Assembly (NCBI GenBank): GCA_963708075.1
Contig: OY970194.1
Span: 1,280,001-1,344,000 of the forward strand
Origin: Sedimentisphaerales bacterium
GTDB taxonomy: Bacteria; Planctomycetota; Phycisphaerae; Sedimentisphaerales; Anaerobacaceae
Length of the DNA: 64,000 nucleotides
Reading direction: 5' to 3'
A program made the position numbers and the translations under genes. Below the pieces are notes generated by a model. That model did not search any database. It was not told where the DNA came from and saw nothing but the letters and a program-made list of their open reading frames with translations. Shown here piece by piece: positions 209 to 61,886 of the stretch; within the stretch, counting starts at the first letter, position 1; the number at the start of each line of letters is the position of its first letter.

Positions 209-295
209 ATCTTCCTCTTTCAGTTCTCTGGATATGAGATCAGTTTATAGCCGGCACCCCGGCATAGTCATGTAGCGGGCAGGTCCTCATTGTGC

Positions 296-1062
296 TCATG
301 CGGCGACCTCATCCATGAAGTGTCTAATGCCTTTGAGCATTTGCTCCACATCCGTACGACTGAACTGGTCAAACTGACCGTGTGCTGCGTTGTTACGTAT
401 GTCTGCCAGTACAGTTGCTTGGCCTTCAACTGGTTGTAGACGCCAGCTTTCTTGAGGTCATCAATCATCACATTCATCTTCTTGTTCTCGCCATTTTCCT
501 TCACGGTTGGTATGGACGGGTTTTGTCCCTTGCACAAGTCTCTCAGTATCTTTTCAAGTACCGCCCCGGCGAGCACGGCTCCGGGCACGTGGTCAAATTC
601 GCCCTGTTGCCCTTCAGACAAGAGGCGTTCGGCCTGTCCCATATAGTCTGCCGCAAATTCTCTCTCAATTTGGCCGATCAAATCACCAAGGAAGCCATTT
701 TCATAATCTGCTCTAAGGCCCTTTAGAGTGCCTATCCCCCAATCGAAGTGCCCAGGACAAATGCGAATATTCCGAAAGCCCTCAACATCATTCCTATGGG
801 CACTTTCCGCGGGGAGGATCTGATCTAAGAGCGATGCACAGGAGGTGCGCCAAGCCATAAAGGGTTGGGGAGCAAGTTCGTAATGGTCTGGTAGTCTCTG
901 CCGGGGACCAAGTCCGCCAAATGAGTCGTATTGGGTGTGGATAAAACTCTCACGATAACCACCCGGAACGGTGCGCATCTGTTGATAAAGGGTCTCTCCC
1001 TGTGCTATGAGTTCGTCGAATCGAGCTAAGTGTTTTTTTCTCAACTCAAGTGGAAGCAGCAT
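296..1062 (-). CDS. HEPN (DUF4145-like) domain protein, frameshifted at ~406
   Basis: ORF 268..1086 gives AVLAGAVLEKILRDLC...LKKAGVYNQLKAKQLYW. The adjacent frame continues ADIRNNAAHGQFDQFSRTDVEQMLKGIRHFMDEVAA* (HEPN RxxxxH motif, stop at 296-298). Confidence 0.75.
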
Positions 1063-1443
1063 TTTATGGTCCTCACCAGCCTTCAACGAGCAGCTCTTGA
1101 ACTGACGCCATTATACCCTCTAGTCGTGTACGCTAATCACAGGATTTGAGTGAATTGTCGGCTCTGCGCTGCAAGTGGCTGTAATCTAAAGAAAGGGGAC
1201 GGTGTCAGGTGTCTATTCGGAAGACCACTGGGCTGTAATTCCGGGGACATCCATGAGCAAGCCGTTGTCAGGCGTGCCCTGGGCTTGTCGAAGGGACGGT
1301 CGCGGGATTCTTTCGCGGGAGTCCCACACATCTATTCGGTGTCGCCCGACTAAAGACTCGGGGACGTGAGTCTCCGGGCCGCAGAGAGTTGCCAATGTTG
1401 TCGGGGCGTGGTCGGAAAGCGGTGGCGGCCTGCATGGCTCTTT

Positions 1444-1545: not shown

Positions 1546-1880
1546 GCGGAGATCGGAATCCGCCACCGAAGGCCGGCCGCAGCCTTTTGTCACTACTTGA
1601 CAAAAGTCATGGAACATTTTGCCTGCATGGAACGTCTTTAATACATGGTGAGATGACCATGTCTCATTGGGCGCAGCGACGCCCGGGCCGGCCCGGCGGC
1701 CACGGTCAATCGTATATCACGAATCGTTAATCGTAGATGTCCTGAGGGAACGTGAAATCCCAGCCGGCCGGCGGCATAGGTTCGATGCCCACTGCTGTCA
1801 AGCAAGGCCAGTCGCCGATATCCCGGAAAGTCTATAGGCAAGCTTCGCTTGACGATGCCGCCCCGTGGGGGGCAGCTATT

Positions 1881-2463
1881 GCGCCAAACAAAGCCAATTG
1901 GAGCAGCCTGGGTCCGTTTGTAGTGTGCCCGTAAGGGCATCAAGGGAAGAAACGCCTTACGGCGTCACTACGAACGAGGATGTGAAACAAAGCCAATTCG
2001 TGATGGAGGAAGGTGGGCCCTTGGGATTGCGGATTGCGGTTGAAGGACGGAAGACTGTCTCGTCGGGCTACGCAATGACAGCACAGGCGAATATGCGAAA
2101 CAAAGCCAAATTCGGGAGATATGGGGTATCTGGGGAAGAATCGGTATCGTGTCTGGCACGGGGCGGAATGTGCGAAACAAAGCCAATATGGCCTTGCCGA
2201 GCGGGCTACAGGCGGTGTGCAAAACAAAGCCAATTTGGGGCCGGGGGCCCTTGGATTGCGGATTTCGGAATGCGGATTGAAGACGAGGACCGCGGTTGCA
2301 GTGATGCCCTCGTGCGGCGTGCGGAACAAAGCCAATCCGGGGGAAGGAGTATCGAGTCTGAAGTGTGAAGTGTCAAATAGCACCCCCGCCCGCAGGGGTG
2401 ATCCCAGCCGAGGGCGGCTGGGCCACATGGTGGCTGACTCGACGTGCCGAACAAAGCCAATTT
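1881..2463 (+). repeat. Array of 7 (A/G)AACAAAGCCAA core repeats with variable modular spacers (not CRISPR)
   Basis: Cores start at 1886, 1985, 2098, 2175, 2222, 2324, 2449; extended consensus RTGCG-AAACAAAGCCAA-TTY. Confidence 0.9.
1920..1971. repeat. GTAG-type REP doublet inside the first array spacer
   Basis: GTAGTGTGCCC-GTAA-GGGCAT ... ACGCC-TTAC-GGCGTCACTAC; near-identical inverted copy at 53762-53812. Confidence 0.8.
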
Positions 2464-51262: not shown

Positions 51263-52264
51263 ATGCTGAACCGGGTGCAACTCAATCGCGGAACGCACGG
51301 CCATATCCGCGTGCTGATCTATGGCGGTGGGGCGGTAGGTCTGGGCATCGCGAGCTGCCTGCTCCATGCGGGCAACGAGGTGGATATCCTCGCAAGGCCG
51401 CAGACGGTCGCCGCCCTGGAGAGGGAGGGGCTGACGCGGACGGGGATCTTCGGCGATGTCCATGCCAAGCCCGGGGCGTTTCGCTGCTACTGCTCGTTGC
51501 AGGAAGCGTGCAGCGGACCGTATGATTTCGTGCTGATTTGCACAAAATCGTTCGATTCGCCTTCCGTTGCAGAAGACCTTGGCCGACAGCGAGCGTGCAC
51601 GAATAGCACCGCGAAACTTGTGTTGTTCCAGAACGGCTGGGGCAATGCCGAGGTCTTCGCCGCCCGGTTCGACAAAGACCGCATCTTCAACGCGCGAGTC
51701 ATCACGGGGTTTCACAAGCATCAGCCCAACGAGGTGGAGATCACGGTTCACGCCGACAGCATCCACATCGGCAGCCTCTTCGGTGTGGACCCCGGCGCTG
51801 TGGAGAGTCTGTGTCATGCCATCAGCGCGGGCGGGATCCCCTGCGAGAAGACCGATGCGATCGAGAAGGACCTGTGGGCGAAGATGCTGTACAACTGCGC
51901 CCTGAATCCGCTCGGAGCAATCCTCGGCGTGCCTTATGGAGTTCTGGCCGAGCATGCGCCGACGCGACAATTGATGGACAAGATCGTCGAAGAGGTTTTC
52001 GCAGTCATGGCGGCCAGTGGTTACAGGACACACTGGCAGCAGGCCCAGGACTTCCTGAAGGTCTTCTACGAGCGATTGGTTCCCGACACCGCCGATCACA
52101 GGTCTTCCATGCTCCAGGACCTCACAGCGGGCAAGCGTACGGAGATCGACGCGTTGAACGGGGCCGTCATCCGGCTGGCGAACGAGCACGGACTCCAAAC
52201 CCCGTACAACGGCGCCGTCTATCGCCTGATCCGGTTCCTTGAGAGCCGCCCCGGCACCGAGTGA
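51263..52264 (+). CDS. panE: 2-dehydropantoate (ketopantoate) reductase
   Basis: GGGAVG, CTKSFD, FQNG, WAKMLYN, SSMLQD, TEIDALNG. Confidence 0.93.
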   Translation: MLNRVQLNRGTHGHIRVLIYGGGAVGLGIASCLLHAGNEVDILARPQTVAALEREGLTRTGIFGDVHAKPGAFRCYCSLQEACSGPYDFVLICTKSFDSPSVAEDLGRQRACTNSTAKLVLFQNGWGNAEVFAARFDKDRIFNARVITGFHKHQPNEVEITVHADSIHIGSLFGVDPGAVESLCHAISAGGIPCEKTDAIEKDLWAKMLYNCALNPLGAILGVPYGVLAEHAPTRQLMDKIVEEVFAVMAASGYRTHWQQAQDFLKVFYERLVPDTADHRSSMLQDLTAGKRTEIDALNGAVIRLANEHGLQTPYNGAVYRLIRFLESRPGTE

Positions 52265-52277
52265 GAAGGCCGACCGG

Positions 52278-53113
52278 GAATTGGCTTTGTTTTGCACAGC
52301 CGGCTCTTTGGCAGGACCGCCCGGCTTGCTGGTTCGATCTTTCCCAAATGCCCCACACGTCCCAAGTTTGGCTTTGTTCCGCATGGCGTGGCGGGCCTCC
52401 AGATTGCCCCATGCAAATTGGCTTTGTTTCACACCCCATGCCTCCCGGCCATTCGGTAGGGTGGGCTCTGCCCACCGCGGGTCCATCGGCGGGAATTGGC
52501 TTCGTTTCTGACCCGGTTCCAACGCATCACTTCTCTCGTAACCTCCTTTCAGGTCAATAGTTAGCGTCGCCACGACCGTCCATTGAATTGGCTTTGTTTG
52601 TCACAGTGGCTCTCACGTTCTTCAATCCGCATTCTGCAATCCGAAATCCGCAACCCCGGGGCTCCTGCCCCGAAATTGGCTTTGTTTGGCAGGGCCGGTC
52701 GTCGCTCCGGGCCGTCTCTGACCGCCTGTTCTCCACATATCACATGTCCCCCAAATTTGGCTTTGTTTCGCACAGTCGCCTCCTGTCGAACCGTCCCGCA
52801 TGCAATACCAATTCTCCCCCAAATATCCCATCCATCCCAGGTTTGGCTTTGTTTTGCGCAACAAGCCGCGCTCGTAGTGACGCCGTAAGGCGTTCGTGGC
52901 GAGGGCCCTTGTCTTCCTCCTATGGAGATTGGCTTTGTTTCGCATCATCGACCAATCAAGCATAACCCCTTTCTCACATAGGATTTCGGCTGATTCCGGT
53001 CCATGTGAATTGGCTTTGTTTCGCACAGCGTACTCCTTGCCTTCAATTCGCATTCCGCAATCCGAAATCCGCAATCGCAGGGCCCTTGGCCCCGAATTGG
53101 CTTTGTTTCGCAT
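52278..53113 (-). repeat. Array of 11 AAACAAAGCCAA core repeats (read TTGGCTTTGTTT on +) with modular spacers (not CRISPR)
   Basis: Cores start on + at 52281, 52368, 52418, 52496 (variant TTGGCTTCGTTT), 52588, 52676, 52757, 52843, 52929, 53010, 53097. Confidence 0.92.
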
Positions 53114-53169
53114 GACCCGGCGCCCGCTGACGCTGATGTGTGCCTGACCGGTCCCCGGCAGACCTTCGG

Positions 53170-53568
53170 GGGTGTGGTCGGAATTCGGTGGCGGCGTGTA
53201 GCTGCCGTGTGCGGACCGGGCCTCTTTCGTCCCTTACGGGACTGGCTTCTATCCTTGACCTCGGTTTCCCAGCGATGAATCGCTGGGCTATTCTCTATCG
53301 CCCTCCGGGCTTGGACGGCACCCGGACGGATCGATCACCATCCCGCAGGTGTTGCAGCTACTCTCTATCGCCCTGCGGGCGTGGACTGCGCTCCAGTCCT
53401 CTTGCGTCGGTCCATCCGCCCCACAGGGGCGATCGACAATAGCCCACCGTTTCAACGGTGGGTACCGATAGCCAATCCTATCCCAGAGCCCCGCAGGGGC
53501 GAAAGAAGACTGGGGGCGCTCCTTTGTCCGGCGGAATCGGAATCCGCCACCGAATGCCGACCGCACCC
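53170..53568. repeat. Nested inverted-repeat composite element (MITE/REP-like)
   Basis: 53170-53194 is the inverse of 53544-53568 (23/25). The triple-hairpin unit 53224-53310 is the inverse of 53418-53505. Confidence 0.75.
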
Positions 53569-53761
53569 GACCTTCGGAATCTTTGATTTTTGATGTTTGA
53601 TTTTTGACTTGCCCATGGCTCATACGGGCGTGCCCACAGATCGGCGATACTTGGTCGTAGGACCATATACTAGAGACGCTCGCCGAGCCGGATTGTTCCA
53701 GGAATTTCTGTTGAATAGTGAAATACTTCAGACCTTTTTGCGGTCCTGACCCCGTCTGTTT

Positions 53762-53812
53762 GTAGTGACGCCGCAAGGCGTCTCCTGGATGATGCCCTTG
53801 CGGGCACACTAC
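53762..53812. repeat. GTAG-type REP doublet
   Basis: GTAGTGACGCC-GCAA-GGCGT ... ATGCCC-TTGC-GGGCACACTAC; homologous to 1920-1971. Confidence 0.8.
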
Positions 53813-54182
53813 AAGCGCACCGGCCAAGCCTGTCTCCTGTCCTCCGCCAGAATCCATCTGCCACGTCGGGCAACCTGCCGGTGGATGAGTTTTGCGCGTT
53901 GGGGTCACCAGCATGATAGATCGCTCGCGCAGGCGCCAAGCAACGCCTGGAACAGGGCTCCAGCCCGAGCCATGCTGGAGGCCAAAAGCGGCAAACTCCC
54001 GTCGCGAAGCGACGGAACCGACAGGCCCGCCTCATGACTCTGGGCACAGGCAATCCGCCCGGCCTCGCCCGGACCAGGTCCTGCTCACCTGTCACGACTC
54101 GCTAATCTCTTGTCACGCCGGGACCTCCTGCCTTTCTATCCTGGGGCCTGTCCGGAGAGGGGGAGAAGTGGTCCGGGCGCTC

Positions 54183-54204
54183 GTAGGGTGGGTCCTTGAC
54201 CCAC
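54183..54204 (+). repeat. GTAG-type REP hairpin
   Basis: GTAG-GGTGGGTC-CTT-GACCCAC; similar to GTAG-GGTGGGC-TCT-GCCCACC at 52456-52476. Confidence 0.65.
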
Positions 54205-54459
54205 GCGGTTATCTTCCTGGAATCCTCGCCCGCCCGCTTGACCCGCCCGGCCGGACAAGCTACAATAGCGGATGACAGTTGGAGCGAATCGCATGGTGGC
54301 AGTGCACGAGACGGACAGAATTAGGAACTTGCCCGGTATGCGTGGGGCAGCGCCCGGTCCATGCTGACGGGCGGGATGCGACGAAATAAGCCGTCCCCCA
54401 GAGTCCGTGAACCAAAAAAGTACCGTACCCGTTTAATTCCCCGGAACTTCCCGAGATAG

Positions 54460-55128
54460 TCACAGCCTGCTCCTGTCCTTTTCTGCTTGCAGGGCGTTCT
54501 CGATCTTTGATAGCTCTTGGTGTGAGTACTCTACCCTGTGGTCGATCTTACCGTTGTCCCCCTGCAACATGTGTCCGATGGTAACAGGCCCAACAGTCCA
54601 CTCGGAATACCATGTGCCGACACCCATGGCTATCCCTGTGCCCCATCGCTCTGGATCTTCGCGATAGGAAGTGGACTGCCAGATTCTCTTGGACTCCACC
54701 GGTTCACCATACTTCTCTCTGAGTTTTGCCTCAATGACTTCAAACTCGGTACAATACCAATTCGCATTTGAATGCTGTGTCAGAAATGAATAGCGCCCTC
54801 GAACGAATGTGTCAGATGCGAAAAGGTAAATGCAGCCTACCTCCAGACCGCCAATGCTGTCGTGAAACCCCATTCCCTTCTCGTTCTCATACATTGGCTC
54901 ACGTGCCTCGGCCTCTTTGATTCTTGCCCTACTGGCACCCCAGGGCACACCCCGGAAAAGGATGGTGTTCGGCTCAGCAACCGCCTTGGCTGCCCAAGTT
55001 CCATCGGTGTAGAGGATAACCCTCATCCCTGAAAATGTGATTGCCTCCTCTCGAACCGTCTTCTCTGTGTCAGCGACGGTGACCATCGTGAGCGACAAGA
55101 CACACAGGCAAATGGCTACGCGAGTCAT
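54460..55128 (-). CDS. Hypothetical secreted protein
   Basis: Signal peptide; VILYTDGTW, FRGVPWG, LREKYGEP; AT-richer codon usage. Confidence 0.7.
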   Translation of the reverse strand: MTRVAICLCVLSLTMVTVADTEKTVREEAITFSGMRVILYTDGTWAAKAVAEPNTILFRGVPWGASRARIKEAEAREPMYENEKGMGFHDSIGGLEVGCIYLFASDTFVRGRYSFLTQHSNANWYCTEFEVIEAKLREKYGEPVESKRIWQSTSYREDPERWGTGIAMGVGTWYSEWTVGPVTIGHMLQGDNGKIDHRVEYSHQELSKIENALQAEKDRSRL

Positions 55129-55191
55129 GCATTCTGCTCCTTCCCTCGTCATTTCGTATTTCCCAGCGGGCACGATGCAGAAGGGCACCCG

Positions 55192-56115
55192 CTACTTTGC
55201 GTAGAACGGCTCTATTTCAGGTGGTTGGTATGTAGCGTACTCAACTCCGTCCGCTACGGTCATAAGCCCTCTCAGGCTTTCGCGGGCACCCTCTACCTCG
55301 TGGAGTTTCGGCATATGAAGGTCGAATGGCATCTGTGGGGAGATGCCAATAACCTGAGTCAACATTGCCCGAATAAACGCGCTGTCATGGTCAGGACACA
55401 CTATGGCCGACTCGCCAGCGGCTCGGGCGAAGTAGTAATTGAGGACATGAGCCTCACCCCTTTCCAATTGCATGGCTGTATGCGAAGGATTGCCGGGCGT
55501 TATGTCCTCATAAGGATTCCAGTCATCTGGCATAGAGCAGGCGACGAAGCAGCACCGAGGACTGAGCGGGTAGTAGAGGACTGACTTAGGCGATATTAGA
55601 AAACCGGTCACGTATACGGGATTATCTGTTCTGATGAAGAAGTCATCAGGGTGCGCAACCAAGATGGTCCAGTCTCTTCCAGCAACCTCGCGAAGGTCCA
55701 GGCACTCCTCGCAGCCGACACGATCATGCGATGGTTGCTCCCTTACACCTGTGAGTTGCTTTGCAGTCTCCTCGTAGCGCATGAACGTTGGCGTACGCAC
55801 AAACTGGGAACGAAGGAACTGCGACCACTTAAGACGCGATTGTGCATCTAGTGACCGCCCGCGGAGCAGTGCGTCATAGATGAGCGATGCAGGGGTCTCC
55901 AACTCGTGGTGGAGCGCATATTCGACACGATCCGTGTACAGTCTGCGCAGGCGACCCCACTGCCTCCACCCGTTCGCGGTCTGACTCACTCTCCCCTTGT
56001 GATAGTCACGATAATAACAGACATAGTGTTTGTTCGCCGCCCAGTGCTCGTTCGCAAACGCAGGAGAGAAATGGTTGTTATTAACTCGAGGCCACCGCGA
56101 GTTGCACGCACACAT
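55192..56115 (-). CDS. DUF4238-like protein
   Basis: N-terminal NNHFSP, QFVRTP, FIRTDNPV, YYPLSP; start uncertain. Confidence 0.6.
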   Translation of the reverse strand: MCACNSRWPRVNNNHFSPAFANEHWAANKHYVCYYRDYHKGRVSQTANGWRQWGRLRRLYTDRVEYALHHELETPASLIYDALLRGRSLDAQSRLKWSQFLRSQFVRTPTFMRYEETAKQLTGVREQPSHDRVGCEECLDLREVAGRDWTILVAHPDDFFIRTDNPVYVTGFLISPKSVLYYPLSPRCCFVACSMPDDWNPYEDITPGNPSHTAMQLERGEAHVLNYYFARAAGESAIVCPDHDSAFIRAMLTQVIGISPQMPFDLHMPKLHEVEGARESLRGLMTVADGVEYATYQPPEIEPFYAK

Positions 56116-56392
56116 TTCTGTTCTTCTCCCAACAGTTACTTGAATTGGGGACAACCGCCGAGTGTCGCCTTGCTCTGTCCTGTTTTACCCGACACTTGGA
56201 CTGGCACAACCATCCAACTCATCTTGACCTCAGCGGGTGCGCCCAACGTAGCGGAACCGCCAACCACTTCGTCGCCGCTTCATCAAGTATCACGAAATGG
56301 GTCGAGGGAGGCAAGAGAAAACGCAGGGCAGCCCGGCGTGGAAATTCGAAATTCCAGGCCGGGGAGGAAGGAGGGGCGGATCTGGCGGATCT

Positions 56393-56437
56393 GGGGACAC
56401 AATACTTAATTCTCCACGAAGTAAGTAATGTGTCCTC
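56393..56437. repeat. Inverted repeat with GGGGACAC end
   Basis: GGGGACACAATACTTA ... TAAGTAATGTGTCCTC (14/16). Confidence 0.65.
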
Positions 56438-56552
56438 GGAATCCCTTTTGAGGCCGGGGCACGCGTGGTAGAATAGTGCATGCGGTACGGACGACCCAAT
56501 GCAATACGCCAACGGAGTGCGGAGAAGAAACACGGTTTCGGAGGACAGAGAG

Positions 56553-57324
56553 ATGAAAGCAATTTATTGGCAGGCCTTTATTCCGCTTATGGCCATTCTG
56601 GCTGTCGCCCCAATTGCTCAGGGCAAGCTGTCGCGCATTCGAGACCCTTGCTGGCACGTTCGAAGTCGGTGGCAGCGTGTATATCGACGACATTTGGGCA
56701 GCCGAATACCCGGAGTTGAATCTGCCATACTCCGACGGTTTTCACGTGGTCGATAGTCAACCGGTATCTGGCTCAGCTCAATACGTATTGCCCGGAACCG
56801 TGGTTCCCTTGGAGGGCGTCTTCTGTGAGGCGAGCTATGAGAGAATCGCCACCATTTATGAGCATGGAGTAATGGTGTTCAGCGACGAGGGTTCTGGGGG
56901 CGTGGCAATTAGCGATTATCTCTTTCGACCACGGCATTCCTCTGTCTATGAAGTGACCTTCAGCGGCTTCTTGACCCCAGTGGGAATGCACATACCGCAC
57001 GATTGGTTCGAATTGTATCTGACCGATACAACTACCGGCGAGGCTCTCATCGATGTCCGTGGGCCGTTCCACGGGCCATGGGCCGAACTATTCAGTTACT
57101 CTTGGGATACAGAGCACGAAGAGACGTTCAAGTTCCGTTTCTTCGATTCACACACGTATCGCCTGAAGATGCTGATTCAACCCTTCTCTACTTTGTGGGA
57201 CAATCCCAGCATAGGCGGTGAAATGAACGTATCAATGAAGCCAATTCCTGCTCCTGGCGCGGCCCTACTTGGTACTCTCGGTGTCAGTCTCGTTGCATGG
57301 CTGCGCAAGCGTCACAGCTTATAG
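56553..57324 (+). CDS. PEP-CTERM-like (IPAP variant) surface protein, frameshifted at ~56620-56640
   Basis: GGAGG RBS and signal peptide MKAIYWQAFIPLMAILAVAPIAQ in one frame; body and IPAPGAALLGTLGVSLVAWLRKR sorting signal in ORF 56614..57324. Confidence 0.8.
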
Positions 57325-57540
57325 AAGACATCTTACCAGCGAGACCTCAGTACAGGACCGCCGCCGGGATGGCAGTGCTGTCTCGTCTGTGAAGGGAAGA
57401 AAAGAAGGGGTCAAGAAGCTTTGGATTTAGGTGTCGCCAGGAGCTGGCACAGCTTTGGAGAGGATTCGGGGTCAACTCTCGGCGCTTGACGGTCGGCACG
57501 GACTGTCCGAGGTCGGGGTGGGAAGCCGGTCCATAATTGA

Positions 57541-57674
57541 TGATGGATGATTGTTGATTGATGATTGGGAGGAAGAAAGAGGGTATCGCGCAAAGACGCA
57601 GAGAGCGCCAAGAAACGACGAAACGCAGGAGCCTTCTTGAACGGTTTCCTTGGCGTGCTTGGCGTCTTGGTGCG
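57541..57674. repeat. Heptamer tract plus 9-mer-based inverted repeat
   Basis: TGATGGA TGATTGT TGATTGA TGATTGG; then TCGCGCAAAGACGCAGAGAGCGCCAAG ... CTTGGCGTGCTTGGCGTCTTGGTGCGA. Confidence 0.7.
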
Positions 57675-57712
57675 AGGTAATCACGGTTCCGGCTGGAAGC
57701 CGGGCTGGGCAG

Positions 57713-57952
57713 TCATGGTCTATGCGCTCGGGTCCGACGTTGGCTGTCAGAGGACAAGAGCTTCTTGCGAGTTTTCGGGCCGACCTTTTCGGGCACGACG
57801 GTCTCGGCACACAACGGAGCGAGCAGAGGGTCGCGGAGGACCTCCTCGTGGGTCCTTTGCCGCTTTTGTGCCCAGGTCAAGGCCGCATCTTCTTCATCGA
57901 TCTGTGTTCGCCGCTGGCGCATCCATGCCACGGCGTCAAATCTCTTCTTCAT
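57713..57952 (-). CDS. Small protein, putative antitoxin partner of the PIN gene
   Basis: MKKRFDAVAWMRQRR...; overlaps the PIN gene end by 17 nt. Confidence 0.6.
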   Translation of the reverse strand: MKKRFDAVAWMRQRRTQIDEEDAALTWAQKRQRTHEEVLRDPLLAPLCAETVVPEKVGPKTRKKLLSSDSQRRTRAHRP

Positions 57953-58406
57953 TGAGCAGCATCTCCTTTGGAGAGCGGATTTCTATCGGCCGATAGCCCT
58001 TCTCCATGCTTACGGCATTGAACAACCGTATTCTACCAAGATTGACGATGTGTTTGAAGTTCCAACTCACCAGGACATCACACTCGCTCACCACGGCCAG
58101 AGCTACGTGCAGGCAATCCGCACGGCTTCCGGGCCCGACGATCCGGTGTTCCAGATAGGCTTCTGCCAAGGCGTAGGCTTCGTCGTTATCCGCCAGGAGG
58201 ATCCGGTGCTCTTGCGGTACTTCCGGCGGTCGTCTACGGACCCGTTCGGGGGCACCCGCCAATTCGCGGAGCGTGTGTTCGGACAGAACCATCACATATC
58301 GGCCTTCGATGAAAAGCCGCCACAAGGTCAGACTGTCTTCGGCAAACTCGACATCGTCACAACCGCCGACGACAGAGGCATCGACATAGACCAGCATCTT
58401 CTTCAT
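57936..58406 (-). CDS. PIN domain protein (VapC-like toxin)
   Basis: C-terminal part of track ORF 57936..59216, from ATG 58406: VYVDASV, RELAGAP, DCLHVA, SWNFKHIVN. Confidence 0.85.
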   Translation of the reverse strand: MKKMLVYVDASVVGGCDDVEFAEDSLTLWRLFIEGRYVMVLSEHTLRELAGAPERVRRRPPEVPQEHRILLADNDEAYALAEAYLEHRIVGPGSRADCLHVALAVVSECDVLVSWNFKHIVNLGRIRLFNAVSMEKGYRPIEIRSPKEMLLNEEEI

Positions 58407-58533
58407 CTGCCTGCTCACAGTCCATACTGTACGCCACCTTGGAGCGGTCTGCAAGAGTCTGCCACTGTGTTTCGGATTTCCTGCTTTGTGCTTTCTTGCT
58501 GGTGTGTCCTGTGTACTGCGGCGTGGGATGGCG

Positions 58534-58539
58534 TATAAT
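58534..58539 (+). promoter_or_regulatory. Candidate sigma70 -10 box for mutS2
   Basis: Perfect TATAAT about 85 nt upstream of the start codon. Confidence 0.4.
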
Positions 58540-58622
58540 GGCGCCGGAAGTATGGTTGTGGAACAGGTTGATATACGCGGCGTGCGGGGCGGCTTGGCCC
58601 GGCGGCTGCGGGATCGGGGCCG

Positions 58623-60728: not shown

Positions 60729-61886
60729 TCACACCATCGCTTTGCTGAGTATTTCAAGGAGTTCGTCGTCGCGCAGCTCGATGGGATTGCCCTTCATGCT
60801 ACTGGCCTTCTTTGCCTGGGCGACGACGGCAGGCAGGTCTTCCCTTCGCAAGCCGTACTCGCTCAATCCGGGCAGGCCGAACCCAGCGCATAACTCCTGA
60901 ATCCAGGAGACAGCGTCGGACGCCTGGGCGGCGGGTTTGCCGGTCAGGATTCTCGCGGCCTCATCGAAGCGGGCCCGGGCCGGTGAGTCGAAGGATCGGG
61001 ACTGCAAGGCCCATACGTTCGCCTCAATGACGTAGGGCAGAAGCTTGCCGCAGATAACGCCGTGGGGCGCATTTGTCATGCCTCCCAGTGGGCCTGCAAA
61101 CCCGTGCACGGCGCCGAGGGCAGCGTTGGCCAGTGCAAGACCGCTGAAGAGACTGGCTATTGCCATATCCTCGCGCGCCTGGGCATCGTTCCCATCCCGG
61201 AACGCACGTTGCAGGGACCGGCCGATCCGTTGCAGGCCCTCGCGGCAGACGCCGTCTGTCATCGGATTGGCTTTGTTTGAAACGAATGGCTCGATGAGTT
61301 GAGTGAGGGCATCCAAGCCGGTGCTGGCGGTCAGCTTCGGCGGCATGGAATGGGTCAGCAGCGGATCGACCAGGGCCACCCGGGGCAGCAGAAGGGGGCT
61401 TCGCATGCTGACTTTTACCCGGTGCTCGGGGACAAGGAGGACCGCGTTGCGCGTGACCTCGGCCCCCGTTCCCGCCGTCGTCGGCACAGCGATGTACGGG
61501 ACCGGCTCGCCCTGCAGAGGTTTACCCTTGCCGACGACCTCAAGATAATCGAGCAGTTCCCCCTCGTTTTTCAGCATGGCAGCAACGACCTTGCCTGTAT
61601 CGATGACGCTGCCGCCGCCGATGGCGATCACGACCTGGCTCTGGGCCCATCGCGCCGACACGACAGCCGCCTGGGCCATCTCCGTCGTGGGTTCCCCGAC
61701 GACATGGAAGACTTCGGGCACGACCGCCACGCAAGCAAGTTGATCGAGGATTCGACCGAAGCGGTGCGGATCGCTCCCCAGCATGAGGAACACCCGGTTG
61801 CCAAACGCGACGGCTATCTCGGCCAACTGGTCTGCGGCACCCGGGCCAAAGATGATCCTGTCGGCAGTAGAGAATTCGAATCTCAT
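60729..61886 (-). CDS. Iron-containing alcohol dehydrogenase
   Basis: GGGSVIDTGK, PTTAGTGAEVT, LGAVHG, PHG. Confidence 0.93.
   Translation of the reverse strand: MRFEFSTADRIIFGPGAADQLAEIAVAFGNRVFLMLGSDPHRFGRILDQLACVAVVPEVFHVVGEPTTEMAQAAVVSARWAQSQVVIAIGGGSVIDTGKVVAAMLKNEGELLDYLEVVGKGKPLQGEPVPYIAVPTTAGTGAEVTRNAVLLVPEHRVKVSMRSPLLLPRVALVDPLLTHSMPPKLTASTGLDALTQLIEPFVSNKANPMTDGVCREGLQRIGRSLQRAFRDGNDAQAREDMAIASLFSGLALANAALGAVHGFAGPLGGMTNAPHGVICGKLLPYVIEANVWALQSRSFDSPARARFDEAARILTGKPAAQASDAVSWIQELCAGFGLPGLSEYGLRREDLPAVVAQAKKASSMKGNPIELRDDELLEILSKAMV

Follow-up and report, generated by a model that had tools for sequence, protein, structure and literature searches.

The window, the 64,000-nucleotide stretch of DNA analysed here, contains two arrays in which a short conserved core alternates with variable spacers. 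Our best explanation, in which belief and doubt are evenly balanced, is that a leader-gene-array element, dispersed in Phycisphaerae-type planctomycetes, gave rise to both arrays as copies without the gene, with cassettes reshuffled at identical cores and REP insertions adding mosaicism. The larger element to which the arrays belong was unseen by a preliminary description of the same DNA.

The core, TGCGAAACAAAGCCAAT, gave 299 pattern matches in 70 clusters in the host genome (7.5 Mb in a single contig, 93% complete), and 41 clusters held at least two matches. None of the 70 clusters mixed strands, each array having a single polarity. Spacer statistics were computed for the 38 clusters with at least three relaxed cores (30 gene-less and 8 gene-linked, with 247 spacers), and the 32 of 70 clusters with fewer relaxed cores were excluded from them. 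By a crude open reading frame caller, on which the gene context is based, 29 of 38 arrays had the gene after the last core on their own strand, and a TATAAT-like box was often present no more than 100 bp away. No replichore bias was seen (16 versus 22 arrays). A lone core was also found within an Fe-ADH open reading frame of the window (61267-61278, minus strand).

Array 1 (1886..2460, plus strand) is gene-less and has seven cores, at 1886, 1985, 2098, 2175, 2222, 2324 and 2449. A K-family REP-like hairpin (1846..1863, plus strand), of which there are 308 copies genome-wide, lies directly ahead of the first core. The six spacers, read on the plus strand, are a J module (1899..1984; motifs at 1918-1930 and 1952-1971, with a REP-like hairpin and a CTAC end), an H module (1997..2097; GGATTGC-type heptamers at 2024-2037), a B module that follows an AAA variant of the core (2111..2174), a short spacer belonging to no family (2188..2221), a second H module (2235..2323; heptamers at 2253-2273) and a chimera of F heptamers (2359-2369) and a P hairpin (2403-2422) that occupies 2337..2448. 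Array 2 (52281..53108, minus strand), likewise gene-less, has eleven cores. Within it are an IHF-like S palindrome, TAA-N19-TTA, in a 92-bp unit (52539..52563), a second S palindrome in an 81-bp unit (52963..52987, minus strand) and a J hairpin inside a chimeric D2+J spacer (52874..52893, minus strand). Between array 2 and its leader there is an inverted pair of hairpins that match the Rfam family Acido-Lenti-1 (53268..53311 and 53417..53462). A similar block lies inside a spacer of 375 bp in another array, near genome position 3465000, and Acido-Lenti-1 may itself be a REP-like repeat.

According to the preliminary description, the spacers of array 1 come from a small shared library of modules in shuffled order. 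Its module A, which is our family H, was located after cores 2 and 5 as claimed, and the inverted recurrences at 52620-52675 and 53041-53096 gave local scores of 57 and 67 with the copy after core 5, against maxima of 34 and 32 in 500 shuffles. Module B, after core 3, recurs as described at 52769-52842 (score 45, shuffle maximum 29). Two looser copies of B held up less well: the one at 52688-52756 is marginal (32 versus 28) and the one at 52293-52367 scored below its shuffles (29 versus 32). By eye both have a B-like start, and the AAA core variant precedes both. The REP of spacer 1 does recur at 52874, with 27 of 29 bases identical, and the order of modules differs between the arrays as reported, being J-H-B-x-H-P in array 1 and H-S-D-B-x-H-S-G-x-x in array 2.

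Recurrence of modules extends across the genome. Spacers matching one in another array above the 99th percentile of a dinucleotide-shuffle null numbered 172 of 247, and the best cross-array score had a median of 53, compared with 27 for the shuffles. Clustering of the inter-core segments, which had been proposed as a check, yielded about ten families (5-37 members) that hold 167 of the 247 spacers; a further 12 occur in pairs and 68 join no family. Modules are therefore shared between arrays, as proposed, but do not form a closed set, and what had been called a library is largely the genome's own dispersed-repeat pool.

Spacer order in the gene-less arrays is near-random, though not wholly so. 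The mutual information between neighbours was 0.63, compared with 0.74 +/- 0.08 after shuffling (81 pairs in 30 gene-less arrays), and the family of a unit did not predict that of the next. Among 85 adjacent spacer pairs with best matches in other arrays, 8 had both matches in the same partner array and just 1 was colinear, which speaks against the arrays being colinear copies of one ancestral element. Mantel tests of module pairs were not significant in nine of ten cases, the exception being a weak correlation of H and S similarity (rho 0.35, p 0.011). Three departures from random order were found: H occupies the first position in 14 of 30 gene-less arrays, where 4.8 would be expected; S has close to one copy per array (19 copies in 18 arrays, p 0.008); and S follows T four times (1.0 expected, uncorrected p 0.008). 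The earlier statement that the arrays are unlike simple tandem duplications needs qualifying, since some gene-linked arrays contain local tandem duplications such as KKKK and KGKG.

The core and the module that follows it behave as a unit, as had been inferred. Of nine B modules, eight come after the AAA variant of the core, and 822 of 1097 cross-array alignments span exactly one core. Alignments started at cores in 70% of cases versus 20%, an excess that is biased by the identity of the cores. The proposal that recombination takes place at the core is favoured by orthologous arrays of two relatives, G007 and G013, which differ by one exact 96-bp core-to-core unit; paralogous arrays within G013 also show whole-unit differences. 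Crossovers are, however, found within modules as well. The D REP, which belongs to this genome and is absent in four relatives, lies inside six spacers with different host modules. It therefore appears that mosaicism also arises within units and that the library is open to new repeats, and, with REPs inside modules, the core cannot be the sole crossover point. Units range from 32 to 375 bp, the shortest being 32-38 bp. Helical phasing of cores was ambiguous: a period of about 10 bp appeared in unclustered spacers (p 3e-4), and 9 and 13 bp scored equally overall.

Spacers have a common layout, consisting of a core, an arm of about 20 bp, a payload and a second arm. The payload mostly starts 16-23 bp past the core and mostly ends 16-30 bp ahead of the next one; the D REP ends 16-19 bp ahead of the next core in all 6 cases. 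The majority of payloads are REP hairpins or 7-mer repeats of kinds that are dispersed elsewhere in this genome. BLAST matches outside arrays were obtained for the spacer centres of H (35/37), K (19/19), J (21/24), D (11/14), R (6/6), P (5/5) and G (15/25). Payloads of S (0/19), B (0/9) and T (1/9) were almost without such matches, and 73 of the 80 spacers beyond the ten families had none. Payload polarity, expressed as sense to antisense, was 84:1 for H, 15:2 for K, 11:0 for G, 9:0 for J and 6:0 for D; F heptamers are exceptional and occur on both strands (13:7).

The REP-like payloads terminate with CTAC or CCAC, which on the opposite strand correspond to the GTAG and GTGG tags described for REPs in PMC3733652. 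The genome has 13 matches to Y1 transposases, with the K REP within 1.5 kb of five of them, and 104 of 293 K copies outside arrays form inverted pairs. Payloads and repeat pools were compared across five genomes, using four motifs. Of the D REP, this genome contains 45 exact copies, six of them in arrays and in one orientation, and the four relatives contain none; one module motif of G013 is absent here and present in G005, G007 and G013; and two other motifs are common to four of the five genomes. When the spacers of G013 were compared with those of this genome, 51 of 57 fell below the family threshold.

Conserved leaders were found at 28 loci. The type I leader consists of TGCAAC-N16/17-CGTCT, AAATC heptamers and a ribosome-binding site, and is present at 18 loci, 12 gene-less and 6 gene-linked; a type II leader, of TTGACA type, was seen at 10 of 13 hand-picked candidates. 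Both arrays of the window have type I leaders. That of array 1 contains a promoter-like TGGAAC-N17-CGTCT (1610..1637, plus strand), and that of array 2 (53592..53700, minus strand) a promoter-like site at 53674-53700 and AAATC-type heptamers at 53592-53603. Type I leaders presumably resemble promoters of ECF sigma factors. Sigma-70 region 2 gave 79 matches in the genome, and there are therefore many candidate ECF factors for this leader.

Eight arrays have an intact open reading frame ahead of the first core. A ninth copy, at genome positions 4778158-4780560, is split: the gene is frameshifted and its array is apparently interrupted by about 1.3 kb of transposase-like DNA, the terminal module following the second part. 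Several gene-less loci retain, by eye, a ribosome-binding site and first codons resembling those of the gene, directly after which the first core begins; this suggests internal deletion. Non-autonomous deletion derivatives of the MITE type are a general concept in mobile DNA. The gene-less copies are like them in retaining the leader and the 3′ array and in outnumbering gene-bearing copies by 30 to 8; they differ in that neither terminal inverted repeats nor a target duplication was seen, and no domain of a transposase either.

The linked gene is present, usually in several copies, in 16 of 18 relatives in the genus, and its family has 23,376 representatives (E up to 0.001, 50% clustering). 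A core was found downstream of the gene and on the same strand at 64 of 83 homolog loci, compared with 1 of 83 upstream controls, and the loci with a downstream core include Planctomycetota, Acidobacteriota and Alphaproteobacteria. The core is read in all three frames, and at 15 of 62 loci a stop codon precedes the first core. The core is therefore a cis site and not a peptide.

The first 180 residues of the linked protein are predicted to form helices with a long hairpin (pLDDT 85). The protein had no match in Pfam, NCBIfam, PHROGs or PADLOC, Foldseek returned nothing at E 0.001 from PDB and BFVD, and a PDB sequence search gave nothing significant. Matches in the ESM Atlas were to unnamed clusters only, two of them with viral members. 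VIA fold matches (best Z 8.9) were generic helical hairpins, among them ISCro4 (Z 8.0) and TasH (Z 7.7) coiled coils, and were not counted. Residues 3-46 did match eight phage proteins (profile match 99.1%, E 1.7e-18, 44 columns). The phage genes that share this N-terminal motif lie ahead of terL and portal genes; at six loci tested, a terL match was directly downstream in four, and PF05119 was passed by one. Beyond the 44-residue motif no homology to the phage proteins was detected, and no core was present at any of 10 phage loci checked. In one terminase-small-subunit-like group from viral contigs, four invariant cysteines lie between the N-terminal motif and a PF05119-like end, and the best match of this group is phrog_26872, of unknown function.

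A 25-bp imperfect palindrome, YAA-N19-TTA, termed S, lies 18-23 bp past a core. The core-S-core unit of about 90-92 bp is present in 21 of 24 genomes of the genus, and a stricter form of the palindrome at this spacing gave 232 genome matches (127 intergenic), versus 99-169 (40-61 intergenic) at six other spacings. S palindromes also lie upstream of most type I leaders. Half sites of the form AA-N4-TTA are present, with C before AA in only 22% of 41 sites, so that the likeness to the IHF consensus is partial. Relative G006 has 27 core-S-core units and gave no gene match in an assembly that is 92% complete and in 1450 contigs. The core-S-core unit is likely to be bent by an IHF-like protein. Repeated sites flank an IHF site in the cosB-type layout of phage lambda, and the elements resemble terminase small subunits (PF05119) and cosB both in the 44-residue motif and in having repeated sites on either side of an IHF-like site. 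Unlike a terminase small subunit gene, the linked gene is multi-copy and chromosomal and stands alone before arrays, with no neighbouring terL or portal; the genome has no match to the terminase large subunit family PF03237.

Array sites were compared with those of relatives. Array 1 ends close to a host amidase gene (PF01520; 2520..3446, minus strand), the stop codon of which is about 58 bp from the last core. None of 17 relatives examined has an array abutting the end of this gene; in G007 there are cores about 1 kb from it, in the other orientation. Upstream of array 1 is a low-GC open reading frame of 272 residues (268-1086, minus strand) without Pfam or PADLOC match, which is likely to be foreign. 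The last core of array 2 is about 15 bp from the stop of the host panE gene (51263..52264, plus strand). Here panE and mutS2 are separated by an insertion of about 6.3 kb (52265..58622) comprising array 2, its leader and unrelated open reading frames, whereas in 13 relatives the two genes overlap at stop and start and there is no insertion. G007 and G013 carry a gene and an array between panE and mutS2, and in G005 the start of the gene is at a contig end; the array at this position in the window lacks the gene and faces the opposite way relative to those of G007 and G013. Short inserts without cores occupy the site in G011 and G031. At sites where mutS2 no longer adjoins panE, it is preceded by a TATAAT-like box of its own. 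The unrelated open reading frames (54460-58540) include a DUF4238 protein (55192-56154), several have no Pfam or PADLOC match, and the stretch at about 57900-58400 resembles, by eye, a small toxin-antitoxin-type pair.

Most array sites are not common to relatives at species distance, and site occupancy is lineage-specific. The leader-gene-array element is probably mobile. No target-site duplication or precise insertion junction was seen in these comparisons, and the genus offered no close sister (best DNA identity 76%, with one short piece at 82%); a metagenome scan with the amidase found distant relatives only (best 48%). The sole reverse transcriptase match of the genome (genome positions 1191250-1192815), of 522 residues with a YADD motif, lies in a low-GC island. 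After this island comes a mosaic of co-oriented repeats that has one core, near genome position 1193000. This enzyme was considered as a partner of the arrays and rejected as incidental. It does not track the arrays, having relatives in 2 of 23 other genomes of the genus, and in this respect the arrays are unlike retroelements and DGRs.

Among the alternatives, the one that survives best, though we consider it unlikely, is that the arrays are a passive sink for repeats, akin to BIMEs or NIMEs. The core would then be functionless or a general host-protein site and the gene a passenger, and slippage and REP traffic would shape the arrays without selection. Co-oriented mosaics that lack cores do exist (of 32 neighbouring repeat pairs outside arrays, 25 share an orientation), the mosaic near 1193000 has but one core, array sites are insertion hot spots with unrelated open reading frames, and TnpA-REP makes BIME variability in vitro, according to PMC3333891. 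Weighing more heavily, in our judgement, are the association of the core with one gene family across loci of three phyla, the fixed geometry of the S unit in 21 of 24 genomes, the tight payload offsets and the leaders conserved at 28 loci.

Less probable is an RNA array, in which the leader would drive a transcript whose A-rich cores are protein-binding or processing sites and whose payloads act as guides or decoys against dispersed repeats. The two kinds of promoter-like leader face into the arrays, payload polarity is strict, the A-tracts of the core are mostly unpaired in folds (0.6-0.9), and payloads match many genomic sites at 85-100% identity, all of which such a transcript would accommodate; it accords poorly with the remaining evidence. 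The preliminary description had suggested covariation as a sign of RNA structure, and none was found around the core (maximum mutual information 0.14 bits, 285 cores). A core hairpin was likewise rejected: the core is asymmetric, pairing is not conserved, and the top mutual-information pairs are not complementary. Unit lengths vary from 32 to 375 bp, there is no Cas1 match in this 93% complete genome, the most conserved unit is a fixed-length palindrome, which fits a DNA site, and the single reverse transcriptase is as sparsely distributed as noted above.

A further reading, to which we give less credence again, treats the gene-less arrays as pilS-like donor libraries of silent cassettes for a hypervariable C-terminal tail. 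Seven of the eight gene-linked arrays are open in the frame of the gene across all cores, versus a permutation mean of 1.7 (none of 5000 permutations reached 7), but the test overstates the case because the gene-linked copies are related. Six of 30 gene-less arrays have any open frame. A terminal His-rich peptide of the type R-x-R-x-A-Y/W-H-x-H is shared by 39 of 322 homologs after differently ordered modules, and in the DNA encoding it the variable columns fall at 10 third, 6 first and 3 second positions (6 copies); the peptide is, however, absent from 283 of the 322. At 27 of 62 other loci the frame stops ahead of the last core. The families also differ: the gene-linked arrays of this genome have K, G and J only, while H, S, B, T, R, P and D abound in the gene-less ones. 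No SEC-C tail was present at 15 distant homolog loci. An integron-like system, in which a dedicated site-specific recombinase excises and reinserts core-bounded cassettes, is very improbable: the exact unit difference between G007 and G013, the leader-proximal bias of H and the promoter-like leader are in its favour, but the best match in a search for IntI was far below the cut-off (82 versus 265 bits), the core is asymmetric and has no conserved hairpin, chimeras within spacers are common, and the linked protein is predicted to be all-helical and matches no family.

Several known systems share features with the arrays. The arrays work like NIME arrays without being NIME. In PMC1797815, NIMEs are described as dRS3 repeats alternating with RS elements, syntenic between strains and reported only in Neisseria, with a proposed role as recombination substrates for a hypothetical recombinase. 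As in that account, a short conserved repeat is combined here with many spacer families of about 50-150 bp in dispersed arrays of variable unit number, which take in other repeats. As to synteny with variation in unit number, the genomes compared here stand at species distance; among them one orthologous pair of arrays from two relatives differs by a single unit, and most sites are not shared. The dRS3 repeat of the same account is a 20-bp inverted repeat, whereas the core here is asymmetric and arrays have a single polarity, and it is to the present arrays that the leader, linked gene, fixed IHF-like unit and in-frame tail belong.

Likeness to REP/BIME and REPIN-RAYT systems lies in the GTAG-type payload hairpins and the 13 Y1 matches, and holds for the payloads, not the core. 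BIMEs, for which IHF binding and mosaic variation have been reported, consist of inverted REP pairs and linkers, as described in PMC3333891 and PMC3733652; the arrays have co-oriented single REPs, many families and a non-REP core. With CRISPR, TIGR and VIPR arrays they share a leader and a conserved repeat that alternates with variable segments. Those systems have fixed periods (60-79, 18 and 5 nt) and a cognate effector, according to bioRxiv 10.64898/2026.10.21.760802. The earlier distinction from CRISPR was borne out, units here being 32-375 bp, spacers being reused and Cas1 having no match. Unlike integrons and CALINs, the arrays have no IntI over the cut-off in the genome, no attC-like conserved hairpin at the core and no such Rfam match in the window. 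In the mainly open-access literature searched, we found no description of this element.

Under the preferred explanation, that of gene-less copies of a leader-gene-array element, the core would be a DNA site to which the protein encoded by the element likely binds, using the N-terminus that resembles terminase small subunits. Cassettes are likely to be reshuffled by short-homology recombination at identical cores, which would thus double as protein-binding sites and crossover points, and exchange between loci would be by host recombination or slippage. Gene-less copies probably originated when the DNA between about codon 10 and the first core was deleted, and spread afterwards. Host repeat traffic would fill the payload slot, with REP payloads likely supplied by Y1 (HUH) transposases. 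In one subclade, which includes the gene-linked copies of this genome, the same shuffling would rewrite the in-frame protein tail.

A more far-reaching reading, which we regard as doubtful, is that the elements represent a new selfish or domesticated class, in which a protein with a TerS motif would assemble on IHF-bent arrays of its own core sites at some 40 chromosomal places. The arrays would be packaging or transfer start points, or nucleoid anchors; host repeats would be sampled at fixed distances from the core and the tail rewritten in one clade. If that were true, this would be an element that moves or organises chromosomes and belongs to neither the transposase nor the integrase class. 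The array described here is similar to NIME but has a gene linked to it, a leader, an IHF-like unit of fixed form and a cassette grammar that can be measured, and it therefore provides a protein and a site to test. Read-through of such arrays is the likely origin of many 'hypothetical proteins' that contain KQSQ, ETKP or NKAN repeats, and a very large unannotated protein family is for the first time connected with a cis element and with phage packaging proteins.
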